This document shows positions 4,317-51,526 of a stretch of DNA of 64,000 bases, piece after piece. Location of the stretch: assembly GCA_040390725.1 (NCBI GenBank), contig JAZJXT010000005.1:13301-77300 (forward strand), given 5' to 3'. The DNA is from Patescibacteria group bacterium (GTDB lineage Bacteria; Patescibacteriota; Minisyncoccia; Phycocordibacterales; UBA9973). Position numbers and translations under genes: made by a program. Under the pieces are notes generated by a model. That model was given only the letters and a program-made list of their open reading frames with translations. It did not search any database and had not been told where the DNA came from. The first letter of the stretch is position 1. Every line of letters begins with the position of its first letter.

Positions 4317-4328
4317 AGAAGAGAAAAG

Positions 4329-4712
4329 AACCTCACCCCAGATTCAAAGTATCTCACCCTAAGATTCAAGGAACCTCACCCCATCCGCCAGCTGGCGGAC
4401 TCTCCTTATTAAGGAGAGGGGGAAAATACAAAATTCAAATCGGCATGACTATTTTTTATAACAAATCTAAAAATTTAACTAAAAGAATTTTATTGAGACA
4501 ATCTCAAACTTCTCAAGAAGTAATGCTTTGGGGAAAATTAAGAAATATAAAGAATATGACAAGCAAAGGTCTGATTATTTATCGGTATTTAATATCAAAG
4601 TAATTCGTTTTTGGAATAATGAAATAAATACCAATATAGAAGGTGTCATATTAAAAATTATTGATGAGTTGAATTCCCCCTCTCCTTAATAAGGAGAGGG
4701 TAGGGTGAGGTT
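4329..4712. mobile_element. MITE-like non-autonomous element: imperfect terminal inverted repeats flanking a decayed DUF559 endonuclease gene
   Basis: Left end: 2.5 tandem copies of cctcaccc(c)agattcaa(a)g (4331-4382), palindrome ccgccagctggcgg (4386-4399), palindrome tctccttattaaggagaggggg (4401-4422). Right end 4676-4712 ccccctctccttaataaggagagggtagggtgaggttc is the reverse complement of the left end minus the ccgccagctggcgg piece. Confidence 0.55.
4445..4700 (+). pseudogene. DUF559 (Vsr-like endonuclease domain) gene remnant, internally deleted and frameshifted
   Basis: Frame 1 from ATG 4445: MTIFYNKSKNLTKRILLRQSQTSQEVMLWGKLRNIKNMTSKGLIIYRYLISK* (DUF559 N-terminal pattern LRxxxTxxExxLWxxLRN). 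A second frame from ~4603 gives VIRFWNNEINTNIEGVILKIIDELNSPSP* (DUF559 C-terminal RFWNNEV..LEGVL). The ~60-aa core between them is missing. Confidence 0.55.
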
Positions 4713-4772
4713 CTGCTGGATTTATAGTAGTCGCAAAATAAGCCTTATTTATAAGGACTTTCTATATTTTAG

Positions 4773-4801
4773 TTGACATTTGGGTTAGCATATGATATAC
4801 T
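4773..4801 (+). promoter_or_regulatory. canonical sigma70 promoter TTGACA-17-TATACT
   Basis: ttgaca (4773-4778), 17-nt spacer, tatact (4796-4801). Drives a ~150-nt leader with a nested hairpin (4861-4904: tcccgaaatta...taatttcggga, inner cacaac/gttgtg) before ORF 4955. Confidence 0.5.
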
Positions 4802-4954
4802 TGCTGTAGACTATTTCTTTGAAAAAACATTGATTTTTGATTACTTAGGTTATTTGGATTTCCCGAAATTAGATCACAACATTTGTTGTGTTTTAATTTC
4901 GGGAAAAGCTGAACACCCGAGTAAGAAGTAGGCGAAAAAATAAACTTAGAAATA

Positions 4955-5440
4955 ATGAAAGAATTATTGTTAGAAAAAGCACGTGAATCTGGTATCTTAA
5001 TTGATGTGATTGAGAGAAATATTAATATCAATTATGATCAGGATATGTATGAACTTGGGGGATTAATCCGCTCTAATCAAGAGCAAAACATTTTTCGGAA
5101 CATAGATAAAAAATATGATCCCCCTAAGGGACAAAAAAATGAGGACGTAGTTCTCATCAAATTTCCAAAGATGTTTTCCTGGGACCAGGGTGTATCCTGG
5201 GGCCGACAAGCTGGTCTTAGTCATTCAACACCTTGGGTTGTGTTTAGCTTGAAGGATACCCCGTATCCAATTTTGGAAACAAGGGGCTATTCAGTTTGCA
5301 AGTGGGACTATGGACTAAATGGTCAGGTAATTGACGACTGGAGGGAAGAATATGTTTGCGGGATTAACGAAAAAGGTGAAGCAAAAGTCTTTTCTCAGCC
5401 TCGTAGAGAGAATCCTTTCTGGCTCGCATTTCTTCGTTAG
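4955..5440 (+). CDS. hypothetical protein (161 aa) in GC-enriched islet
   Basis: Intact ORF with no recognisable family; local GC visibly higher than neighbouring genes. Confidence 0.5.
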   Translation: MKELLLEKARESGILIDVIERNININYDQDMYELGGLIRSNQEQNIFRNIDKKYDPPKGQKNEDVVLIKFPKMFSWDQGVSWGRQAGLSHSTPWVVFSLKDTPYPILETRGYSVCKWDYGLNGQVIDDWREEYVCGINEKGEAKVFSQPRRENPFWLAFLR

Positions 5441-5514
5441 TGGAAAAAGGTGAAACTGCTTACCTTTAAGTAGCAGAATTTTTTTTGTTTAACTTCTAAT
5501 TTAAAAATCAAATC

Positions 5515-5808
5515 ATGAATTTACATCAGATTACCGTAGAGCAGGCGGCGACTATCGCCACCCAGTTCTTGAAGCAAGAAATTGCAGAAATTCTTTGTTT
5601 GGGTCGCGATGATGGAGAACCTAAATATATTTGTATCAGGATGAAAAATCTTGAGGAGGACGTAAGTCCATGCCTCTATATCTACCCCAGTGGTAGTGTT
5701 CACCTTATTCACATTAAGGATGGAGGAGCAAATAGGCCATTCCAGCCTGTTAATGCTCTGCCTATAACGGATTATCTCCGTAGTGAGGGATTTGAGTTTA
5801 AATACTAA
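5515..5808 (+). CDS. hypothetical protein (97 aa)
   Basis: Intact ORF following a hairpin/T-run after the 161-aa gene; no recognisable family. Confidence 0.45.
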   Translation: MNLHQITVEQAATIATQFLKQEIAEILCLGRDDGEPKYICIRMKNLEEDVSPCLYIYPSGSVHLIHIKDGGANRPFQPVNALPITDYLRSEGFEFKY

Positions 5809-5852
5809 TTTTCCTCAGTAAAGCCACTTACTAAAATAGTGGCACGTAATAA

Positions 5853-5888
5853 AAAACGCGTACGATTCAATCTACGCGTTTTCTTTTT
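5853..5888 (+). terminator. rho-independent terminator
   Basis: aacgcgtacgattcaatctacgcgtt stem followed by ttcttttt. A smaller hairpin gccactta...tagtggc precedes it at 5823-5843. Confidence 0.6.
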
Positions 5889-5904
5889 GCTAATTTTTAA
5901 ATTT

Positions 5905-5936
5905 CTACGATAGTCGACATATGTTTGCTATCGTAG
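5905..5936 (+). repeat. 32-bp nested palindrome, copy 1 of 3: CTACGATAGTCGACATATGTTTGCTATCGTAG
   Basis: Perfect 9-bp outer arms ctacgatag/ctatcgtag with inner palindromes gtcgac and acatatgt. Near-identical copies at 50855-50886 (opposite orientation) and 51497-51526. Confidence 0.8.
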
Positions 5937-5948
5937 ATTATGGATAGT

Positions 5949-7841
5949 TTACTTTGCAAACTTAATTTTCTCTTCTTTTCCTAAAATAGGTTTTTGGGGT
6001 TGGAAGACAGAATTTAATTTTATTATATTTTTCTTTACGGACATTGTGCCAGCTTTGTAAAGTTTTATTTCTAGCAACATTCCTTGCATCGTGTTTTCCG
6101 AGAATTTTTGGTCAAAGATAAAGTTGCCTAATGAGTAGGCTATATAACTATTTTTATAAACTTCAAAATCTTCCACGACATGCGGATGCGCGCCGATGAC
6201 GAGTTTGGCACCGTCGTCTACGGCTTTATGCGCTAGGTATTCTTGGCGAGTATTATGTTTTGTTTGATATTCCTCACCGAAATGAAATGACACCACTAAA
6301 CTATCCACTTGTTTCGAAGCATTTTGAATTATTTTATCAAAATTCGGATTAGTGGTGAGTAGTAGTCCAGATTCTGTATCAGTAGGAGTCAACCATTCTG
6401 GGCCTTTATCAGAGAATGCCAGATAGCCTATTTTCATACCATTTTTTTCAATTATTTTAGGAATTTCTGCGTTATTTTCATTTGCTCCGCCTCCCGAATA
6501 AAGAATTTCGTTTTCTGTTAAGTGCGAAAGTGTGTCTTCGAAAGCTTCACGACCCCAGTCGCCGATATGATTGTTTGAAATAGAAAGTACATCTATGCCA
6601 GCACCCTTGAGTGCGGGTATAGTTTCCGGATCCATTCTGAAAGAATATAAATTGTGTTTATCTTCTCCTTGGTCTGACGCTGGGCCTTCTAAATTTGCAA
6701 AGACGATATCATTTTTATTAAGTTCACCCATGTTTTGGAAAAGAGCGGAATAGTCGCCGTTGAAATTCTTGCGAACGGAACTTTTTACTCCGCGGTCGAG
6801 CATGATGTCGCCCAAGAATGCTAAATTCACATAGTCAGGTTCTGCAAATTCAGGCATGCCTTCTTTGGTTTTTACCCAATTACTTTTTGCGTCTATTTCA
6901 CCACCGTAATAAATATTTTTCTTCACAAATTTTAAAATACTTTCCACGTCTTTTTTGCGGTCTGGTGTACGGAGGAGGACAATAGCTACATTTCTTTTCC
7001 CGGACTCAGAAAGAGGCAGGGAAAAATTTGAAATCACCGTTTGCTTAGCTTCGTCGGTGTATCCGCTCTTACCGCCCAGGTATCCATCATCACTTAGGAA
7101 TTGATTGGTGCTGTACCAGAAATGTTTTTTATTGCTGTAACTTTTATTTTGAGTTATTTTTAAAACATTAGGCGCGTTATTTTTTAAATATCCGGCGAGA
7201 GAAAATAGGTCGCGTGCGGTGGATTGATTGTTCGGCGAGAGTCCGCTCGGGTCTTCAAAGGACGTCGAAGGCATTGATAATCTTTGCGCTTCTTGATTCA
7301 TTTTTTGCAGGAAAGTTTCTCTATTAAAGTGTTCGGCTATTATTTCAGCGGCATCATTTGAAGATTCCAGTAGAAGAGGGTAGAGGATATCGCTTATCTT
7401 TATTTTTTCATTTAAATGAAAAGCGCCGTTTTGTCCGTATGTGGCAAGGGCTTTTTTGGAAACAACAGCCACATCATTGTCATCAGGCAGTTCTGTGGCG
7501 GTGAGAGCCGTCATAAGTTTTGAAACAGATGCGATAGGGTATTTTTGTTCTTCTTTTTTCTTTAAAATTATTTCACCGGTGTCCAAGTCACCCACTATGT
7601 ATGCATCAGCAGAAATCTTCGGCGCTATTTTTGGATCTTTTAGAAAATAAAAACTTGTCTGCTCAGGAGTTTTTGTTTCAGATATTGGTGCCGGTTGTGT
7701 TTTCGGGACTTCATTTTGGGTATTTCCTTCTTTTGATATTTTATAATATCCGATGGCTTGCGTTATGAAAAAAGCGGAGGCTAGTCCTACGGTTAAGGAT
7801 ATAATTACAAATAGAAATTTTTTTGCTGCTCGTTTAACCAT
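5949..7841 (-). CDS. membrane-anchored fusion of a serine-type D-Ala-D-Ala carboxypeptidase domain and a CapA/PgsA-like metallophosphatase domain
   Basis: N-terminal TM helix; PBP5-type motifs SVSKLMT (SxxK), ESSND (SxN), KSGYT (KTG). C-terminal half has CapA motifs (LAFLGDIMLDR, FANLEGP, SISNNHIGDWG, VIGAHPHVV). Confidence 0.75.
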   Translation of the reverse strand: MVKRAAKKFLFVIISLTVGLASAFFITQAIGYYKISKEGNTQNEVPKTQPAPISETKTPEQTSFYFLKDPKIAPKISADAYIVGDLDTGEIILKKKEEQKYPIASVSKLMTALTATELPDDNDVAVVSKKALATYGQNGAFHLNEKIKISDILYPLLLESSNDAAEIIAEHFNRETFLQKMNQEAQRLSMPSTSFEDPSGLSPNNQSTARDLFSLAGYLKNNAPNVLKITQNKSYSNKKHFWYSTNQFLSDDGYLGGKSGYTDEAKQTVISNFSLPLSESGKRNVAIVLLRTPDRKKDVESILKFVKKNIYYGGEIDAKSNWVKTKEGMPEFAEPDYVNLAFLGDIMLDRGVKSSVRKNFNGDYSALFQNMGELNKNDIVFANLEGPASDQGEDKHNLYSFRMDPETIPALKGAGIDVLSISNNHIGDWGREAFEDTLSHLTENEILYSGGGANENNAEIPKIIEKNGMKIGYLAFSDKGPEWLTPTDTESGLLLTTNPNFDKIIQNASKQVDSLVVSFHFGEEYQTKHNTRQEYLAHKAVDDGAKLVIGAHPHVVEDFEVYKNSYIAYSLGNFIFDQKFSENTMQGMLLEIKLYKAGTMSVKKNIIKLNSVFQPQKPILGKEEKIKFAK

Positions 7842-28733: not shown

Positions 28734-28887
28734 AGTTTAAAAAAATATTTTGTTTAATATCTTTTTTTATTTCCCAAAATCAAATTTGTGTGCTATTGTG
28801 TATTTACAACTTCATATATACCCCTAAGCGTAAAGCAAGGGGAATTTTAGGTTTTTAATGGAGGTGGTTTGTGTGTTGAGGCATTAA

Positions 28888-28980
28888 TTCTCCTCTTGAG
28901 GAGTACCCCGACAGCAGTCGGGGGGAGGTGGAGAATTTATCCACCCCGTCTCGCAAGCGAGCCACCCCTCAAGAGGGGAA
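28888..28980 (+). other. GC-rich four-helix structured element immediately upstream of uvrA (unknown RNA or repeat)
   Basis: Outer inverted repeat cctcttgagg (28891-28900) / cctcaagagg (28967-28976) encloses hairpins ccccgac-agca-gtcgggg, ggtgga-gaattta-tccacc and ctcg-caag-cgag. It is about 60% GC in a genome of roughly 33% GC. Confidence 0.4.
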
Positions 28981-28989
28981 TAAAATTTT

Positions 28990-32075: not shown

Positions 32076-33347
32076 ATGCAAAGTCAAGCGTTAAAAAATT
32101 ATAAGTTGCCGGACAAACCGGGAGTTTATTTTTTTATGGGTTCAAAGCCACGAACAAAAACCTCACCCCCGACCCCTCTCCATTTTAAAGAAATGGAGAG
32201 GGGAGGAATGCCGAAGGCAGGAGGGGTGAGGGAAGAAATTCTCTATATCGGCAAAGCGACAAGTTTGAAAGACAGGGTAAAGAGTTACTTTGGTAAAGAT
32301 TTATTTAATACTCGTGGGCCGTTGATTGTGGATATGGTAACGAAAACCACAAGTTTAAAATGGCAGGAAACTGACTCAGTTTTGGAAGCGCTTATTTTGG
32401 AAGCGAATTTAATTAAAAAACATCAGCCATATTACAATACAAAAGAAAAAGATGATAAAAGTTTTAATTATGTTTGCATAACACGTGATAAAAAAATTAT
32501 GTTTGTGCGCGGAAAAGTACTAGATATAAAAAAATATAATTCTGTTTTCGGACCTTTTCCATCTGGTAGTCAACTTAAAGATGCTATGAAAATTGTGCGT
32601 CGAATTTTCCCATATATTGAAGAGAGAAGGGGTGCAAAAGGCAAAGAAGAATTTTATAAACAAATAAAGCTTTTCCCATTAGATTCAAAAGAAAATACAA
32701 ATAACATTAAAAACATAAAACTATTTTTTGAGGGCAAGAAACAAAAAGTAGTAAAGAACTTAGAAAAAGAAATGAAGATGCTTGCGCATGAGCATGAATT
32801 TGAACAGGCAAATGAAATAAAGAAACAGCTATTTGCATTAAAGCACATCAATGATGTTGCATTAATAAAAGGAGATTCTTTTGGAGGCTCAACCTCCAAA
32901 AATTTCAGAATTGAAGCTTATGATATAGCTCATATGTCAGGACAAAATATGGTGGGTGTGATGACGGTTTTGGAAGATGGCGAAGTAAATAAAAATGAAT
33001 ATAGAAAATTCAAGATAAAAAATTATGATAGTGCGAATGACACCGGAGCATTGTTGGAAGTTTTAGAAAGACGTTTTAATCATTCCGAGTGGCAATATCC
33101 GAAATTAATTGTGATAGACGGAGGCAAGGCACAGCTGAATGTAATTAAAAAATTCCAAGCTCGCGTCGGGTTCGCTATTCCGTCAGTGGCGGTAGTGAAA
33201 GATGAAAGGCATAAAGCTAAAGGCATTTTGGGTGACAAAGAAACTATAAAAAAGTTCGAAAAAAGCATTTTACTAGCAAATGCCGAAGCGCATAGGTTTG
33301 CTATCAAATATCACATAAAAACACGCAAAAATAGCTTTTTGGGGTAG
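32076..33347 (+). CDS. uvrC: excinuclease ABC subunit C, short form lacking the C-terminal (HhH)2 domain, with an in-frame palindromic-element insertion in the GIY-YIG domain
   Basis: GIY-YIG (PGVYFF...ILYIGKATSLKDRVKSYF), UVR motif (EFEQANEIKKQLFALKHI), endonuclease domain (RIEAYDIAHMSGQNMVGVM). Ends at 423 aa. Confidence 0.85.
   Translation: MQSQALKNYKLPDKPGVYFFMGSKPRTKTSPPTPLHFKEMERGGMPKAGGVREEILYIGKATSLKDRVKSYFGKDLFNTRGPLIVDMVTKTTSLKWQETDSVLEALILEANLIKKHQPYYNTKEKDDKSFNYVCITRDKKIMFVRGKVLDIKKYNSVFGPFPSGSQLKDAMKIVRRIFPYIEERRGAKGKEEFYKQIKLFPLDSKENTNNIKNIKLFFEGKKQKVVKNLEKEMKMLAHEHEFEQANEIKKQLFALKHINDVALIKGDSFGGSTSKNFRIEAYDIAHMSGQNMVGVMTVLEDGEVNKNEYRKFKIKNYDSANDTGALLEVLERRFNHSEWQYPKLIVIDGGKAQLNVIKKFQARVGFAIPSVAVVKDERHKAKGILGDKETIKKFEKSILLANAEAHRFAIKYHIKTRKNSFLG
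32161..32232 (+). repeat. 72-bp imperfect palindromic element (CCTCACCC...GGGTGAGG termini) inserted in frame inside uvrC
   Basis: cctcacccccgacccctctccattt | taaagaa | atggagaggggaggaatgccgaaggcaggaggggtgaggg. It encodes the extra peptide ~KPRTKTSPPTPLHFKEMERGGMPKAGGVRE between conserved GIY-YIG blocks and shares termini and the CTCTCC core with the element at 4329-4712. Confidence 0.7.
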
Positions 33348-43401: not shown

Positions 43402-46400
43402 TTAAATCTCTTTCACCGCATCTATTGCAATACTTTTTTCGCCATTGCGGACGGAGACTTTGCCGGAGAGGGCGATGCATTTTTCGGCGACGAGGATGTC
43501 TATGGAACTGCTGAAAGTGGAAGGGAATACTACAGCTTCAATGGTGCCGGTTAGGTCAGAAATTTTTAAGAATGCCATGCGTTCATTTTTTTTCGTTATG
43601 ACTTGGCGGACTGTTTCTATAATGCCTCCTATTTTTACAGGTGTGCCATTTTTTCCTTCCTCAATTATTTTTTTAATATTCATTTCTTTTTTCTCTAGTT
43701 TTTCGCGCAGTCTATCGAGTGGATGTCCGGAAATATAAAGTCCTAATAGTTCTTTTTCCCAAAGCAGTTTTTCTGTCTGCGTCGCCGGAGTTCCATCCCG
43801 TAATTTGAAAGATGGCGCAGAAGTAGTCGGCAGTGCTCCGAAAAGTGAAATCTGATTTGCATTTTGTTTGGAGCTTTCTTTATTGTATTCGAGCATGTTT
43901 TCCAAATTAAAAAGAAGAGTTCCGCGGTCGCTGAATTCATCCATCGAGCCGGACTTTATCAAAGCTTCCATTGATTTTTTATTTAAATTTTTATGTTTTA
44001 TTCTATCCAAGAAATCGCTGATATTTTTAAATTCACCATTAGCTTTGCGTTCAGAAATTATTGCATCTGAGATATCCGTGCCGAGGTTTTTAATTGTATA
44101 AAATCCAAATCTGATATCTCTAGACACCATAGAGGCCGAACCTCCAAGGGGAGGTTCGGCCTCGGAAGGAACTCGAATAACAGTAAATCCGCCATAACTT
44201 TCATTTATATTCGGCGGAAGCACGGGGATTTTCATATTCTTACATTCATTGATTATTTCAGAAATTTTTTCCACATCGCCGGATTCTGCCGTCAAAATAG
44301 CGGTCATGTATTCCACCGGATAATTCGCTTTCATATACGCCGTCTGATATGCGACTTTTCCATAACTCGCCGCGTGTGCTTTGTTGAATCCATAAGCCTG
44401 AAAAGGTTCGAAAAGTTTCCACAATTCTTCAGCGAATTTTTTTGTCTGTCCATTTGCTACTATTCCATCAGTGAATTTTTTATGCTGTGCGGCCATTTCC
44501 GCAGGAATTTTTTTACCCACAGCCTTGCGGAATTTATCGGCTTCCTCCCAGTTATACCCGGCCATTTCGAGCGCACAGAAGAGCAGGTCGTCTTGGTAAA
44601 CGATGAGTCCATATGATTCCGTCAAGAATTTTTTCATTCGCGGGTCCAAATATTTTACCAGCTTTGGGTTATGTTTTCTTTTTATATATTCGGGAATTGA
44701 TTCCATCGGACCGGGGCGGTAAAGAGCTACCATTGCATTAATATCATGAATAGATGTGGGTTTTAGTTCTTTTAAATATCTCGTCATTCCTGAGCCGTTT
44801 AGTTGGAAAAGTCCTTCTGTTTGTCCGCTCGCCAAAAGTGCAAAAGTTTTTTTGTCATCAAGGGGAATTTTTTCTATATCAATATTTATATTGTAGAATT
44901 TTTTTACCAAACTTATTGCATCTCCTAAAATTGCCAAGTTCCTTATTCCCAAAAAGTCGAATTTCAAAAGCCCGGCTTCTTCGATACTGTACATGTCGTA
45001 TTGAGTGATTACTTTTCCTCCTTTCGGGTCGAGCTGAACAGGAGTATATTCATATATTGGTTTTGGTGCGATGACGACGCCCGCTGCGTGCACCGAGATG
45101 TGCCGTACGCATCCTTCTATTTTTTTTGCTAAATCAATTATCTCTTTGGTGTCTTTTTCTTTTTCATAAGCTTCTTTGAGTTCTGGTACTATTTTCATAG
45201 CATGGTCTATGGTCATCGGCATTCCTTGTGAGCCGAGTGGAATCATCTTTGAAATTCTATCACCAATACTATATTCATGGCCGAGAGCTCGCGCTACGTC
45301 GCGCACAGAACCTTTTGCCATCATCGTACCAAATGTTCCTATTTGCGCGACCTTGTCTTCGCCATATTTTTTCTTTGCGTACTCGATCATTTCATCGCGT
45401 CTGTTGTCGGCATAGTCCATATCGATGTCCGGCGGGGAAGGACGGAATGGATTTAAGAATCTTTCAAAGGGTAATTTATATTCTATCGGGTTCACATTTG
45501 TAATGCCTATCAAATATGTCACCATCGATCCAGCAACGGAGCCTCGGATAGTCGTCAAAATTCCATTTTCTTTTGCATGTCGTAACAAATCTCCCACCAC
45601 CAAAAAGTACGGCGAATATCCTTTGTCGCAAATAATTTTCAATTCATATTCTACGCGTTCTTTTATTTCCGGAGTTTCTTTTAAGTCAAGCCGAGCAAAT
45701 CCGGCATAAGTTAATTCGCGTAGTTTTTCATTATAAGTTTTCCCCTCCTCGATTTTAAAATCAGGAAATACCCAAGCCCCTAGTGGGATTTCAACATCGC
45801 ACATATCGGCAACTTTTTTTGTATTTGCGACAGCTTCGGGAATATCTTTGAAAATTTCCAATGCTTGTTCTTCGTTGATAAAAGAAAAATCATCTCCGCC
45901 GAAAGTAAATCTGTTTTCATCTTTTAGGTCGGAGTTTGTTTGAATTGCGAGCAATGTCTCGTGCGCTTTATGGTCTTCTCCGCAAGGGTAATGCGAGTCA
46001 AAAGTCGCTACCATAGGGATATCAAATTTCCTGCTCATTTTTATCAATGCTTCACGTACTTCTTTGTCACCTTCTACTGAGGGGTGCTTCATCACTTCCA
46101 AAAAATAATTTTCTTTACCGAAAATATCTTGATGCTCTTTTATTATCATTTCCGCTTTTTCTTCGTTCTTTGCGTAAAGTGCTTGTGAGAGTTCTCCACC
46201 CAGGCAACCGGAGAGCGCGATGACTCCTTCTGAGTACTTTCGCAAAATTTCTTTGTCCATTCTCGGCTTGTAGTAATATCCTTCGAGGTTTGAAAGTGTC
46301 ACCAAGTGAATTAGATTTTTATAACCCTGCAAATTTTTTGCGAGCAATGTCAGGTGGTAGCGTTTATTGTCTATGCCGGGTTCTTTGTCGAGGCGTGAAC

Positions 46401-46620
46401 GTTCGGCGATATATGCCTCGACACCGATGATGGCTTTGATGCCTTCTTTTTTTGCGAGTTTATAAAATTCAATAGCGCCATACATATTACCGTGGTCGGT
46501 GATAGCCATCGCCGGCATTTTGAATTTCTTTGCCAGAGCCACCAAATCCTCGGTCTTTGAAAGCCCATCCAAGAGGGAGTAATGACTATGCGTATGCAAA
46601 TGCACAAAACCTTGTTTCAT
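43402..46620 (-). CDS. dnaE: DNA polymerase III subunit alpha
   Basis: PHP domain FVHLHTHSHYSLLDG; 1072 aa with polymerase core and OB domain. Confidence 0.95.
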   Translation of the reverse strand: MKQGFVHLHTHSHYSLLDGLSKTEDLVALAKKFKMPAMAITDHGNMYGAIEFYKLAKKEGIKAIIGVEAYIAERSRLDKEPGIDNKRYHLTLLAKNLQGYKNLIHLVTLSNLEGYYYKPRMDKEILRKYSEGVIALSGCLGGELSQALYAKNEEKAEMIIKEHQDIFGKENYFLEVMKHPSVEGDKEVREALIKMSRKFDIPMVATFDSHYPCGEDHKAHETLLAIQTNSDLKDENRFTFGGDDFSFINEEQALEIFKDIPEAVANTKKVADMCDVEIPLGAWVFPDFKIEEGKTYNEKLRELTYAGFARLDLKETPEIKERVEYELKIICDKGYSPYFLVVGDLLRHAKENGILTTIRGSVAGSMVTYLIGITNVNPIEYKLPFERFLNPFRPSPPDIDMDYADNRRDEMIEYAKKKYGEDKVAQIGTFGTMMAKGSVRDVARALGHEYSIGDRISKMIPLGSQGMPMTIDHAMKIVPELKEAYEKEKDTKEIIDLAKKIEGCVRHISVHAAGVVIAPKPIYEYTPVQLDPKGGKVITQYDMYSIEEAGLLKFDFLGIRNLAILGDAISLVKKFYNINIDIEKIPLDDKKTFALLASGQTEGLFQLNGSGMTRYLKELKPTSIHDINAMVALYRPGPMESIPEYIKRKHNPKLVKYLDPRMKKFLTESYGLIVYQDDLLFCALEMAGYNWEEADKFRKAVGKKIPAEMAAQHKKFTDGIVANGQTKKFAEELWKLFEPFQAYGFNKAHAASYGKVAYQTAYMKANYPVEYMTAILTAESGDVEKISEIINECKNMKIPVLPPNINESYGGFTVIRVPSEAEPPLGGSASMVSRDIRFGFYTIKNLGTDISDAIISERKANGEFKNISDFLDRIKHKNLNKKSMEALIKSGSMDEFSDRGTLLFNLENMLEYNKESSKQNANQISLFGALPTTSAPSFKLRDGTPATQTEKLLWEKELLGLYISGHPLDRLREKLEKKEMNIKKIIEEGKNGTPVKIGGIIETVRQVITKKNERMAFLKISDLTGTIEAVVFPSTFSSSIDILVAEKCIALSGKVSVRNGEKSIAIDAVKEI

Positions 46621-50854: not shown

Positions 50855-50886
50855 CTACGACAATAAACATATGTCGACTATCGTAG
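50855..50886 (-). repeat. 32-bp nested palindrome, copy 2 (inverted orientation), overlapping the promoter of the PaaX-like gene
   Basis: ctacgacaataaacatatgtcgactatcgtag; reverse complement ctacgatagtcgacatatgtttattgtcgtag. TAGAAT -10 (50907-50912) ends 6 nt before ATG 50919. Confidence 0.8.
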
Positions 50887-51488: not shown

Positions 51489-51496
51489 TAAAGTTT

Positions 51497-51526
51497 ACGA
51501 TAGTCGACATATGTTTGTTATCGTAG
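51497..51526 (+). repeat. 32-bp nested palindrome, copy 3, upstream of the BNR-propeller gene
   Basis: (t)tacgatagtcgacatatgtttgttatcgtag, same orientation as copy 1. Confidence 0.8.

Follow-up and report, generated by a model that had tools for sequence, protein, structure and literature searches.

A decayed nuclease cassette lies just 3' of smc in a 64-kb stretch of Patescibacteria DNA (64,000 nucleotides of contig JAZJXT010000005.1; hereafter the window). A 249-nt segment bounded by inverted repeats (4374–4424 and 4676–4713) holds the remains of a YcjD-like DUF559 nuclease gene, and each cassette end is, to judge from its sequence, a copy of the BoxC/PIT/TM intrastrand triplex motif (TM). 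Inverted TMs of the same variant bracket YcjD-like genes in a strong, replicated association that extends across phyla. The feature is read as a decayed TM-bounded YcjD-like DUF559 cassette, with gene-less TMs as derivatives of such cassettes, and this reading is given a probability of roughly 60%. The wider proposal, that YcjD-like DUF559 nucleases are the cognate partners of BoxC/PIT/TM repeats throughout Bacteria and drive their spread, maintenance and local instability, is advanced at even odds. No literature link between DUF559/YcjD and BoxC/PIT/TM was found in open-access papers and bioRxiv. Repeat family and protein family are each known; the cassette type that combines them appears to be undescribed.

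In Escherichia coli the motif is represented by the 'TMECO' repeats, CCCTCTCCC-loop-GGGAGAGGG-TTA-GGGTGAGGG (Holder et al. 2015, PMC4666352). These are identical to the BoxC repeats of the 1990s (Bergler 1992) and the 'PIT' elements of 2000 (Hoyne 2000; both in PMC4666352). The third, G-rich arm mirrors the purine arm of the hairpin (G with G, A or T with A; PMC4666352), which allows a single strand to adopt a purine-motif triplex. TMECO oligonucleotides form intrastrand triplexes in vitro according to circular dichroism and nuclear magnetic resonance. TMs are present in E. coli and >260 genomes without an assigned function or partner gene; in E. coli they are always intergenic and their loci are tied to local rearrangement (PMC4666352). 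The folds given below were calculated with ViennaRNA and represent the hairpin only.

The cassette was compared with a close relative, L001 (~94% nucleotide identity by blastn), which has an intact DUF559 gene. The features of the locus are as follows (window coordinates).

4325–4383, + strand: tandem array with a period of 21–22 nt and 2.8 copies of the unit AAAGAACCTCACCCCAGATTC (Tandem Repeats Finder).

4374–4424, G-rich strand on −: left TM, with third arm CCTCACCCC at 4374–4382 and hairpin CTCTCCTTA-T-TAAGGAGAG at 4400–4418, then GGGGG.

4445–4547, + strand: N-terminal DUF559 fragment, codons 1–34 (MTIFYNKSKNLTKRILLRQSQTSQEVMLWGKLRN) up to the deletion junction, as aligned to 119–120-aa relatives.

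4544–4547, + strand: deletion junction with 115 bp lost (38 codons and 1 nt) and a 4-nt microhomology, located by blastn of the window against L001 and by alignment.

4549–4689, + strand: C-terminal DUF559 fragment, KEYDKQRSDYLSVFNIKVIRFWNNEINTNIEGVILKIIDELNSPSP followed by a stop.

4676–4713, G-rich strand on +: right TM, with hairpin CCCCCTCTCCTTA-A-TAAGGAGAGGG at 4676–4700, spacer TA and third arm GGGTGAGG at 4703–4710, then TTC.

4714–4750, + strand: right-hand extension conserved with L001, homology to which ends at 4750.

The motif is built of a CCCTCTCC-loop-GGAGAGGG hairpin and a mirror arm, GGGTGAGG. Hairpins with the pyrimidine arm CCCTCTCC and the complementary G-rich GGAGAGGG are located at 4400–4418 and 4678–4700 and, in a further element inside uvrC, at 32174–32204. 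The mirrored third arm is present at the right end (GGAGAGGG-TA-GGGTGAGG) and on both sides of the uvrC copy. The right end and the uvrC element fit the TM exactly, and the left end fits save for a spacer of 17 nt, beyond the 1–6-nt loops that define TMs. This spacer contains the 16-nt palindrome TCCGCCAGCTGGCGGA (4384–4399), including a 12-nt insertion relative to L001. Owing to its spacer the left TM passes a relaxed pattern only, and it fails the strict TM detector described below because its purine arm is shortened. As single-stranded DNA the left TM folds with −16.9 kcal/mol (z −5.2).

The layout starts just 3' of the smc stop (4316). The order on the left is AACCTCACCCC / AGATTCAAAGTATCTCACCCTAAGATTCAAGG / AACCTCACCCC-A-TCCGCCAGCTGGCGGA-CTCTCCTTATTAAGGAGAGGGGG, followed by the middle 249 nt and, on the right, CCCCCTCTCCTTAATAAGGAGAGGG-TA-GGGTGAGGTTC. 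The repeat finder reports inner arms of 25 nt (4400–4424 and 4674–4698; 100% complementary, 249 nt apart) and outer arms of 16 nt (4371–4386 and 4698–4713; 88% complementary). An earlier sequence-only reading of this DNA had described a ~35-bp inverted pair around a ~250-bp segment. The inverted repeats and the size of the segment were confirmed; since the left arm is interrupted by the 16-nt palindrome, a single continuous ~35-bp arm does not exist. Both hairpins of the cassette are also 21-nt direct repeats of each other. Each unit of the tandem array, which the same reading had recognized as 2.5 copies of a 21-bp unit, bears a C-strand copy of the third arm (CCTCACCC or CTCACCC), the final copy being what looks like the functional third arm of the left TM. 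In L001 a single CCTCAYCC takes the place of the array. Duplicated third arms are also found in unrelated TMs (L018, L064, L082). The right TM end has near-identical counterparts in L001, L002, L131 and L212, and the first ~13 nt of the extension are common to L131 and L212 as well.

In the 64-kb window CCTCACCC occurs 6 times (0.5 expected) and the composite CCTCAYCC-N-CYCTCC-loop-GGAGRG 4 times (0.00 expected), namely at the two ends of the cassette and on both strands of the uvrC element. The TM elements stand out as GC-rich islands in a window of 37% GC, as had been noticed before, and their loops are AT-rich (TTAWTAA). They had been taken for a palindromic family of this genome. This view had to be abandoned: the ends correspond to BoxC/PIT/TM, known from >260 genomes (PMC4666352), and the pattern CCTCAYCC-N(0-25)-CCCTCTCC-N(3-30)-GGAGAGGG is present in at least 120 IMG/VR contigs of 33–73% GC, often in several copies each, so that the family is not private to this genome. 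Rfam and tRNA scans of the window gave no matches.

The DUF559 gene between the TMs is, on the evidence of its sequence, a dead pseudogene. The C-terminal fragment (open reading frame (ORF) 4528–4689) matches Pfam PF04480 with an E-value of 6.5e-9 (36.1 bits, cut-off 20.6; profile positions 66–108 of 109). The N-terminal fragment (ORF 4445–4603) alone gives a weak match (E 0.056, profile 9–29). A hidden Markov model (HMM) built from close full-length relatives matches positions 1–36 with E 1.5e-11 and positions 72–120 with E 6.6e-21. The sequence-only reading was correct in assigning the two frames to N- and C-terminal DUF559 blocks with a deleted core and a frameshift; of the HMM check it had suggested, the C-terminal part succeeds with PF04480 itself and the N-terminal part only with the subfamily HMM. 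A database search with the joined fragments returned 81 proteins, mostly of 115–130 aa, and those with a named source are from Parcubacteria/Patescibacteria. Aligned to its relatives, the window copy lacks 38 central residues (35–72), and comparison with the intact L001 gene shows that one deletion accounts for both the missing core and the frameshift. This deletion takes out the invariant D53, E64, D66 and H70 (numbering of the intact relative P0001), which form the catalytic core, and shifts the frame.

In the C-terminal fragment, the TAA stop (4687–4689) and the three codons before it fall in the right TM hairpin. A conserved C-terminal tail, ...PSP-stop or in the other frame PLLNKERVG, is found in the relatives and in E. 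coli YcjD. The tails ...ELNxPSP-stop and ...PLLNKERVG of relatives from the candidate phyla radiation (CPR) are two frames of one hairpin, CCCTCTCCTTAATAAGGAGAGGG. E. coli ycjD ends with ...ELNRRSPSP-stop, its TGA being located in the loop of a degenerate TM. A full-length DUF559 partner, as envisaged by the sequence-only reading, is absent from the window, where the subfamily HMM detected no second DUF559. Pfam and NCBIfam searches of the protein returned DUF559 only and no IS200/IS605-like HUH tyrosine transposase.

The coupling of gene and repeat was analyzed in 80 YcjD-like DUF559 loci taken from contigs with one genome per species; two peptide patterns within the domain served to select them, and they represent the YcjD-like subfamily only. 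The set spans Patescibacteria, Alpha-, Beta-, Gamma- and Deltaproteobacteria, Chloroflexi, Clostridia, Melainabacteria, Bacteroidetes, Spirochaetes, Cloacimonadota and a Kuenenia metagenome-assembled genome. The TM detector, built by the authors, requires a purine arm of 7 nt of which 5 or more are G, a complementary arm within 3–30 nt and a mirror third arm within 25 nt, with at most one mismatch in each of the latter two. It reports just three sites in the 64-kb window, all of them expected. The following frequencies were obtained.

TM at most 120 bp upstream of the DUF559 domain: 61 of 78 loci.

TM at most 120 bp downstream of the DUF559 domain end: 60 of 77 loci.

TM on both sides of DUF559: 47 of 75 loci.

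Control, TM density more than 400 bp from the DUF559 gene: 0.092 per kb, ~1.4% per search interval.

Control, ends of other ORFs (150 aa or longer) in the same loci, search interval of the same size: 13 of 345 (3.8%).

Identical 7-nt purine arm in both flanks: 45 of 52 loci, against 36% of random locus pairs.

DUF559 ends and other ORF ends differ with an odds ratio of ~90 (Fisher, p ~1e-44). Upstream TMs are placed 10–70 nt from the start, and downstream TMs overlap the stop; in 35 of 61 loci the DUF559 stop codon is inside the downstream TM or at most 15 nt before it. An independent set of 34 IMG/VR loci replicates the association (TM upstream in 27/34, downstream in 20/27), and E. coli ycjD conforms to it too. 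Nearly all of the stronger matches in this set (tblastn E < 1e-13; L213–L238, L240) have TMs, and most of the weakest (L239, L241–L246) have none. The near-universal pairing of DUF559 and repeat in YcjD-like genes across bacterial phyla was missed by the sequence-only reading.

The flanking TMs are mutually inverted. The arrangement in most lineages is hairpin-GGGTGAGG, gene, CCTCACCC-hairpin; the CPR lineage of the window has the opposite TM polarity. In many loci the gene is flanked by a palindromic TM pair on either side. L001 has both TMs and L002 the right TM only. The arm varies between loci (GGAGAGG, GGGGAGG, GGAGGGG, GGGGGAG and others), and by visual inspection the third arm follows. 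Tested formally, mirror and direct third arms were counted in 391 and 334 of 777 registers, respectively, G-rich 7-mers matching in several registers. Only the asymmetry between the 3' and the 5' side is clear (391 versus 114). Among the IMG/VR contigs, L214–L238 (~4–10 kb, ~71% GC) have a TM-flanked DUF559 gene near one contig end in many cases, possibly at prophage or assembly boundaries.

A gene-less member of the family is present inside uvrC (32076–33347), where the sequence-only reading had already placed a second palindromic element in frame.

32148–32234, + strand: in-frame insertion of 87 bp in uvrC, encoding 29 aa (PRTKTSPPTPLHFKEMERGGMPKAGGVRE) in the GIY-YIG beta-hairpin loop.

The element proper (32161–32231) is a TM pair with one common hairpin, CCTCACCCC-cga-CCCCTCTCCATTT-taaag-AAATGGAGAGGGG-19 nt-GGGGTGAGG, and folds with −26.3 kcal/mol (z −7.5). 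The insertion is shared only with the closest relative, P0082 (identity of 82% in the alignment, 72% at the nucleotide level), and is missing in 13 other Parcubacteria UvrC proteins. The pair is translated in frame and thus deviates from the intergenic location of the E. coli TMs. Differing short insertions occur at the same GIY-YIG loop and elsewhere in the UvrC proteins of P0082 (L248), P0083, P0096 and P0172, for example PLIRGNEGVV in P0082. This variety suggests recurrent in-frame insertion of palindromic repeats.

The following mechanism would account for these arrangements. The nuclease would recognize TM DNA by sequence or structure and nick or cut it. Recombinational repair of the break would use a second TM-bearing locus as template, with the TMs of ~35–45 bp serving as portable homology, and would copy or delete the gene, the TMs and neighbouring DNA. 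Gene-less TMs would arise as non-autonomous derivatives, and rearrangements next to TMs would be explained. Recombination between the two hairpins of a cassette, which are 21-nt direct repeats, would give exactly the single-hairpin palindromic form seen in uvrC. In the window, the nuclease has been killed by the 115-bp deletion, the left TM has gained the 12-nt palindromic insertion and extra third arms, and a gene-less TM pair is fixed in frame inside uvrC.

The flanks of the cassette were compared with those of L001. On the left, window and L001 cease to be related 13 nt beyond the third arm; on the right, their homology ends 37 nt outside the cassette end. Further to the right, L001 1892–1972 corresponds to window 5948–6028. 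Because of this synteny the cassette site is orthologous, and the idea that window and L001 show one unit in two genomic contexts, which would have proved transposition, was rejected. The 1.2 kb missing from L001 (4750–5948) contain two orphan ORFs (4955–5440 and 5515–5808) with no Pfam hit on record, a near-consensus promoter, TTGACA-17-TATACT (4773–4801), and a long hairpin leader (4858–4905). A search for an empty site returned only an identical 1.3-kb contig by exact-protein look-up of the downstream ORF and one locus by a metagenome scan with the right end and its extension; this locus, L212, is another gene-bearing copy. A Logan contig (L211, SRR26324628) is 100% identical to window 4676–6030. 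This independent short-read contig begins exactly at the first base of the right TM hairpin, where an assembly is expected to break if the genome has further copies of the TM. The window lacks homologues of tatD, of the glyoxalase gene and of the L001 neighbour.

Comparable changes are seen in E. coli. The interval between sapF and fabI contains the ycjD and TM segment in 3346 of 5426 complete genomes and the eefRABCD operon instead in the rest (PMC12817139). No TM is present at this position in the eef haplotype, and homology starts again ~40 nt beyond TMECO #9. The rearrangements in L001 and at ycjD/eef fit the reported TM-associated instability; transposition is not shown by them. In E. coli K-12 (L130 2290–2370) a partial duplicate of the ycjD 3' end (GGAGACGGTGCTGGAGAATATTC...) is located between ycjD's own degenerate TM and TMECO #9. 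It may have been left by a second cassette or by a repair event.

Several observations weigh against the proposed partnership. The L001 cassette occupies the same chromosomal site, and movement was not observed. No flanking direct repeat indicative of a target-site duplication is present at 4374–4713 or 32148–32234, and no empty and filled allele pair was found for the cassette. Of 120 TM-bearing IMG/VR loci among the matches listed, only one has a DUF559 gene, most TMs being solo, and only 1–2 of the 23 TMs of E. coli K-12 are near DUF559. That a DUF559 protein binds or cuts TMs is a deduction. In the only experimental DUF559 work found in the literature search, Caulobacter VsrA elicits an SOS response when a cytosine methyltransferase is absent, and its authors regard it as a Vsr-like nickase (PMC12907096). 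A DUF559-TM cassette is found directly upstream of a tatD-like DNase gene in the divergent CPR genomes L002, L134, L136 and L142, which suggests a conserved site or long vertical inheritance.

The fold of the enzyme and the DNA damage that a DUF559 protein, Caulobacter VsrA, causes in vivo (PMC12907096) count in favour of the cassette reading. A sequence search matched PDB entry 3HRL, an uncharacterised 'endonuclease-like protein' of N. gonorrhoeae (E 3.5e-18). An AlphaFold2 model of the intact relative P0001 (predicted local distance difference test score 84) likewise has 3HRL as its best PDB match. The second match is 3R3P, the catalytic domain of I-Bth0305I (3R3P_B, E 7.4e-4, TM-score 0.81 normalised to the target, rmsd 2.7 Å); the target-normalised TM-scores of 3HRL and 3R3P are 0.80–0.81. 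E. coli Vsr is at rank 16 among the structure matches. The enzyme is of the PD-(D/E)xK fold, and the modelled DUF559 nuclease fold is shared with a proven homing endonuclease, 3R3P. Vsr, DUF559 and I-Bth0305I were placed in one clade ('VSR, DUF559, DUF2726'; Steczkiewicz et al. 2012).

The most serious of the rival explanations, in itself an unlikely one, regards DUF559 as a housekeeping Vsr-like repair nickase. The flanking TMs would then be cis-acting (mRNA ends, promoter or operator, insulator) or simply accumulate there, and the dispersed TMs would be unrelated. Such a role agrees with the behaviour of VsrA as a methylation-linked nuclease (PMC12907096), with the stable synteny of some CPR cassettes with tatD and with the position of TMs 10–70 nt before the start and across the stop. 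However, PIT/TM elements have neither promoter nor terminator activity in E. coli (ref. 41 of PMC4666352, as cited there), and no T-run follows the hairpins. A regulatory role does not explain the tens to hundreds of dispersed gene-less copies or the inverted flanks of one arm variant, and a TM is present at just 3.8% of other ORF ends.

Less probable again is a miniature inverted-repeat transposable element (MITE) or insertion sequence with CCTCACCC terminal inverted repeats, in which the decayed DUF559 would be the transposase and the gene-less copies MITEs. The MITE-like character asserted by the sequence-only reading holds for the terminal inverted repeats, and the gene-less palindromic copy, the lineage-specific uvrC insertion and the multiple TM copies in many contigs are in line with it. 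It fails in other respects: neither element has a target-site duplication, and no transposase was found, be it a DDE, HUH or serine/tyrosine recombinase. A PD-(D/E)xK nuclease of 120 aa is not known to be capable of strand transfer alone, as is established for TnsA-type nucleases. Furthermore, the supposed terminal repeat is conserved in different phyla and has a third arm compatible with triplex formation, rather than being an end specific to one element, and the L001 site is orthologous. Mobility functions or transposase remnants were never found near TMs by Holder et al. (PMC4666352), and the sole associated gene encodes a PD-(D/E)xK nuclease.

Chance, or intrinsic terminators of smc and the pseudogene, can practically be dismissed: the left hairpin is indeed located 58–100 nt 3' of the smc stop, but four copies of the composite motif were counted with 0.00 expected, in >100 loci the DUF559 ends share the conserved module, and the terminator reading was rejected as the hairpins lack T tracts and are missing from the terminator-scan output.

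BoxC/PIT/TM repeats have been known in E. coli for ~30 years and in hundreds of genomes, and no function, origin or partner protein was assigned to them; DUF559/YcjD is a very large orphan nuclease family. Their tight coupling across phyla makes both questions experimentally testable. It would represent a second, mechanistically different repeat-nuclease partnership in bacterial chromosomes and supply a candidate for a protein that recognizes a triplex-prone motif in DNA. The coupling also explains the odd tails ('PSP', 'PLLxKERxG' or 'GEG') that are a frequent artefact in the annotation of DUF559 proteins, and in-frame palindrome insertions in CPR housekeeping genes.

The window has other palindromes and hairpins. 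In dnaE (43402–46620, − strand) a perfect GC-rich palindrome at 44132–44165, GAGGCCGAACCTCC-aagg-GGAGGTTCGGCCTC, is in frame (peptide SEAEPPLGGSAS) and has no third arm; it may be an in-frame palindromic insertion of a second kind in an essential gene. GC-rich mini-hairpins (28880–28985; CTCCTCTTGAGGAG, CCCCGACAGCAGTCGGGG, CCCCTCAAGAGGGG and others) are clustered directly 5' of the uvrA start (28990). A 32-nt hairpin repeat, CTACGATAGTCGACATATGTTTGYTATCGTAG, is present in three copies (5905–5936, 51495–51526 and, as the reverse complement, 50855–50886) and belongs to a family unrelated to TMs. A single copy of the third-arm sequence is found elsewhere.

1307–1314, + strand: lone CCTCACCC, 2 nt 3' of the stop of a NusB-like ORF, with no hairpin partner nearby.

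The sequence-only reading had listed this site as a family member. It exists as described and could be a TM footprint or chance; a single 8-mer is indistinguishable from chance and not significant alone. The preceding ORF (405–1304, 299 aa), named nusB in that reading, appears by eye to be NusB-like in its N-terminal and Nudix-like in its C-terminal part.

The cassette can be compared with several known systems. With the BoxC/PIT/TM repeats it shares the three-block motif, CCCTCTCC(C)-loop-(G)GGAGAGGG-short spacer-GGGTGAGG(G), the occurrence as single copies or palindromic pairs, the high GC content and the local rearrangement. In E. coli these repeats are intergenic and gene-less, whereas the window has one pair translated inside uvrC and two copies that bracket a DUF559 gene, the right TM overlapping the end of the DUF559 ORF. 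The AT-rich loops (TTAWTAA), the left spacer of 17 nt and the Patescibacteria-like host of 37% GC are further differences.

With respect to DUF559/YcjD (PF04480, NF007294; PDB 3HRL), the fragments align to the N- and C-terminal parts of 119–120-aa relatives, and the tail SPSP-stop is common to the window copy and E. coli YcjD. In contrast to these proteins, the window copy lacks residues 35–72 with the catalytic D/E/D/H and is frameshifted. The catalytic domain of I-Bth0305I is the best functional structural match of the modelled intact relative, and I-Bth0305I likewise is a selfish nuclease that spreads by break repair. It is, however, encoded by an intron in phage recA and has an extra DNA-binding region, whereas the DUF559 cassette is free-standing with repeat ends and has no known target allele.

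The Rickettsia palindromic elements (RPE), said to have been described by Ogata et al. in 2000, are reportedly 100–150 bp long and without an associated nuclease gene. Like them, the uvrC copy, and possibly the dnaE palindrome, is an in-frame palindromic repeat that is tolerated in a surface loop of an essential gene. The sequence families are unrelated, and the TM family of the uvrC copy has an associated nuclease gene whereas RPE has none.

A parallel is provided by the REP/REPIN-RAYT systems (REPtrons), in which a single-copy nuclease gene is located between inverted short palindromic repeats that are also dispersed in gene-less form. RAYT is an HUH Y1 transposase that acts on single-stranded hairpins, and its activity on the repeats is shown; DUF559 is a Vsr-like PD-(D/E)xK nuclease whose action on TMs is deduced. 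Additionally, the TM has a third, mirror-repeat arm. By analogy, and with the chances about equally divided, the DUF559-TM partnership may correspond to REPIN-RAYT but with a Vsr- or homing-endonuclease-like enzyme and with ends able to form non-B (H-DNA-like) structures.

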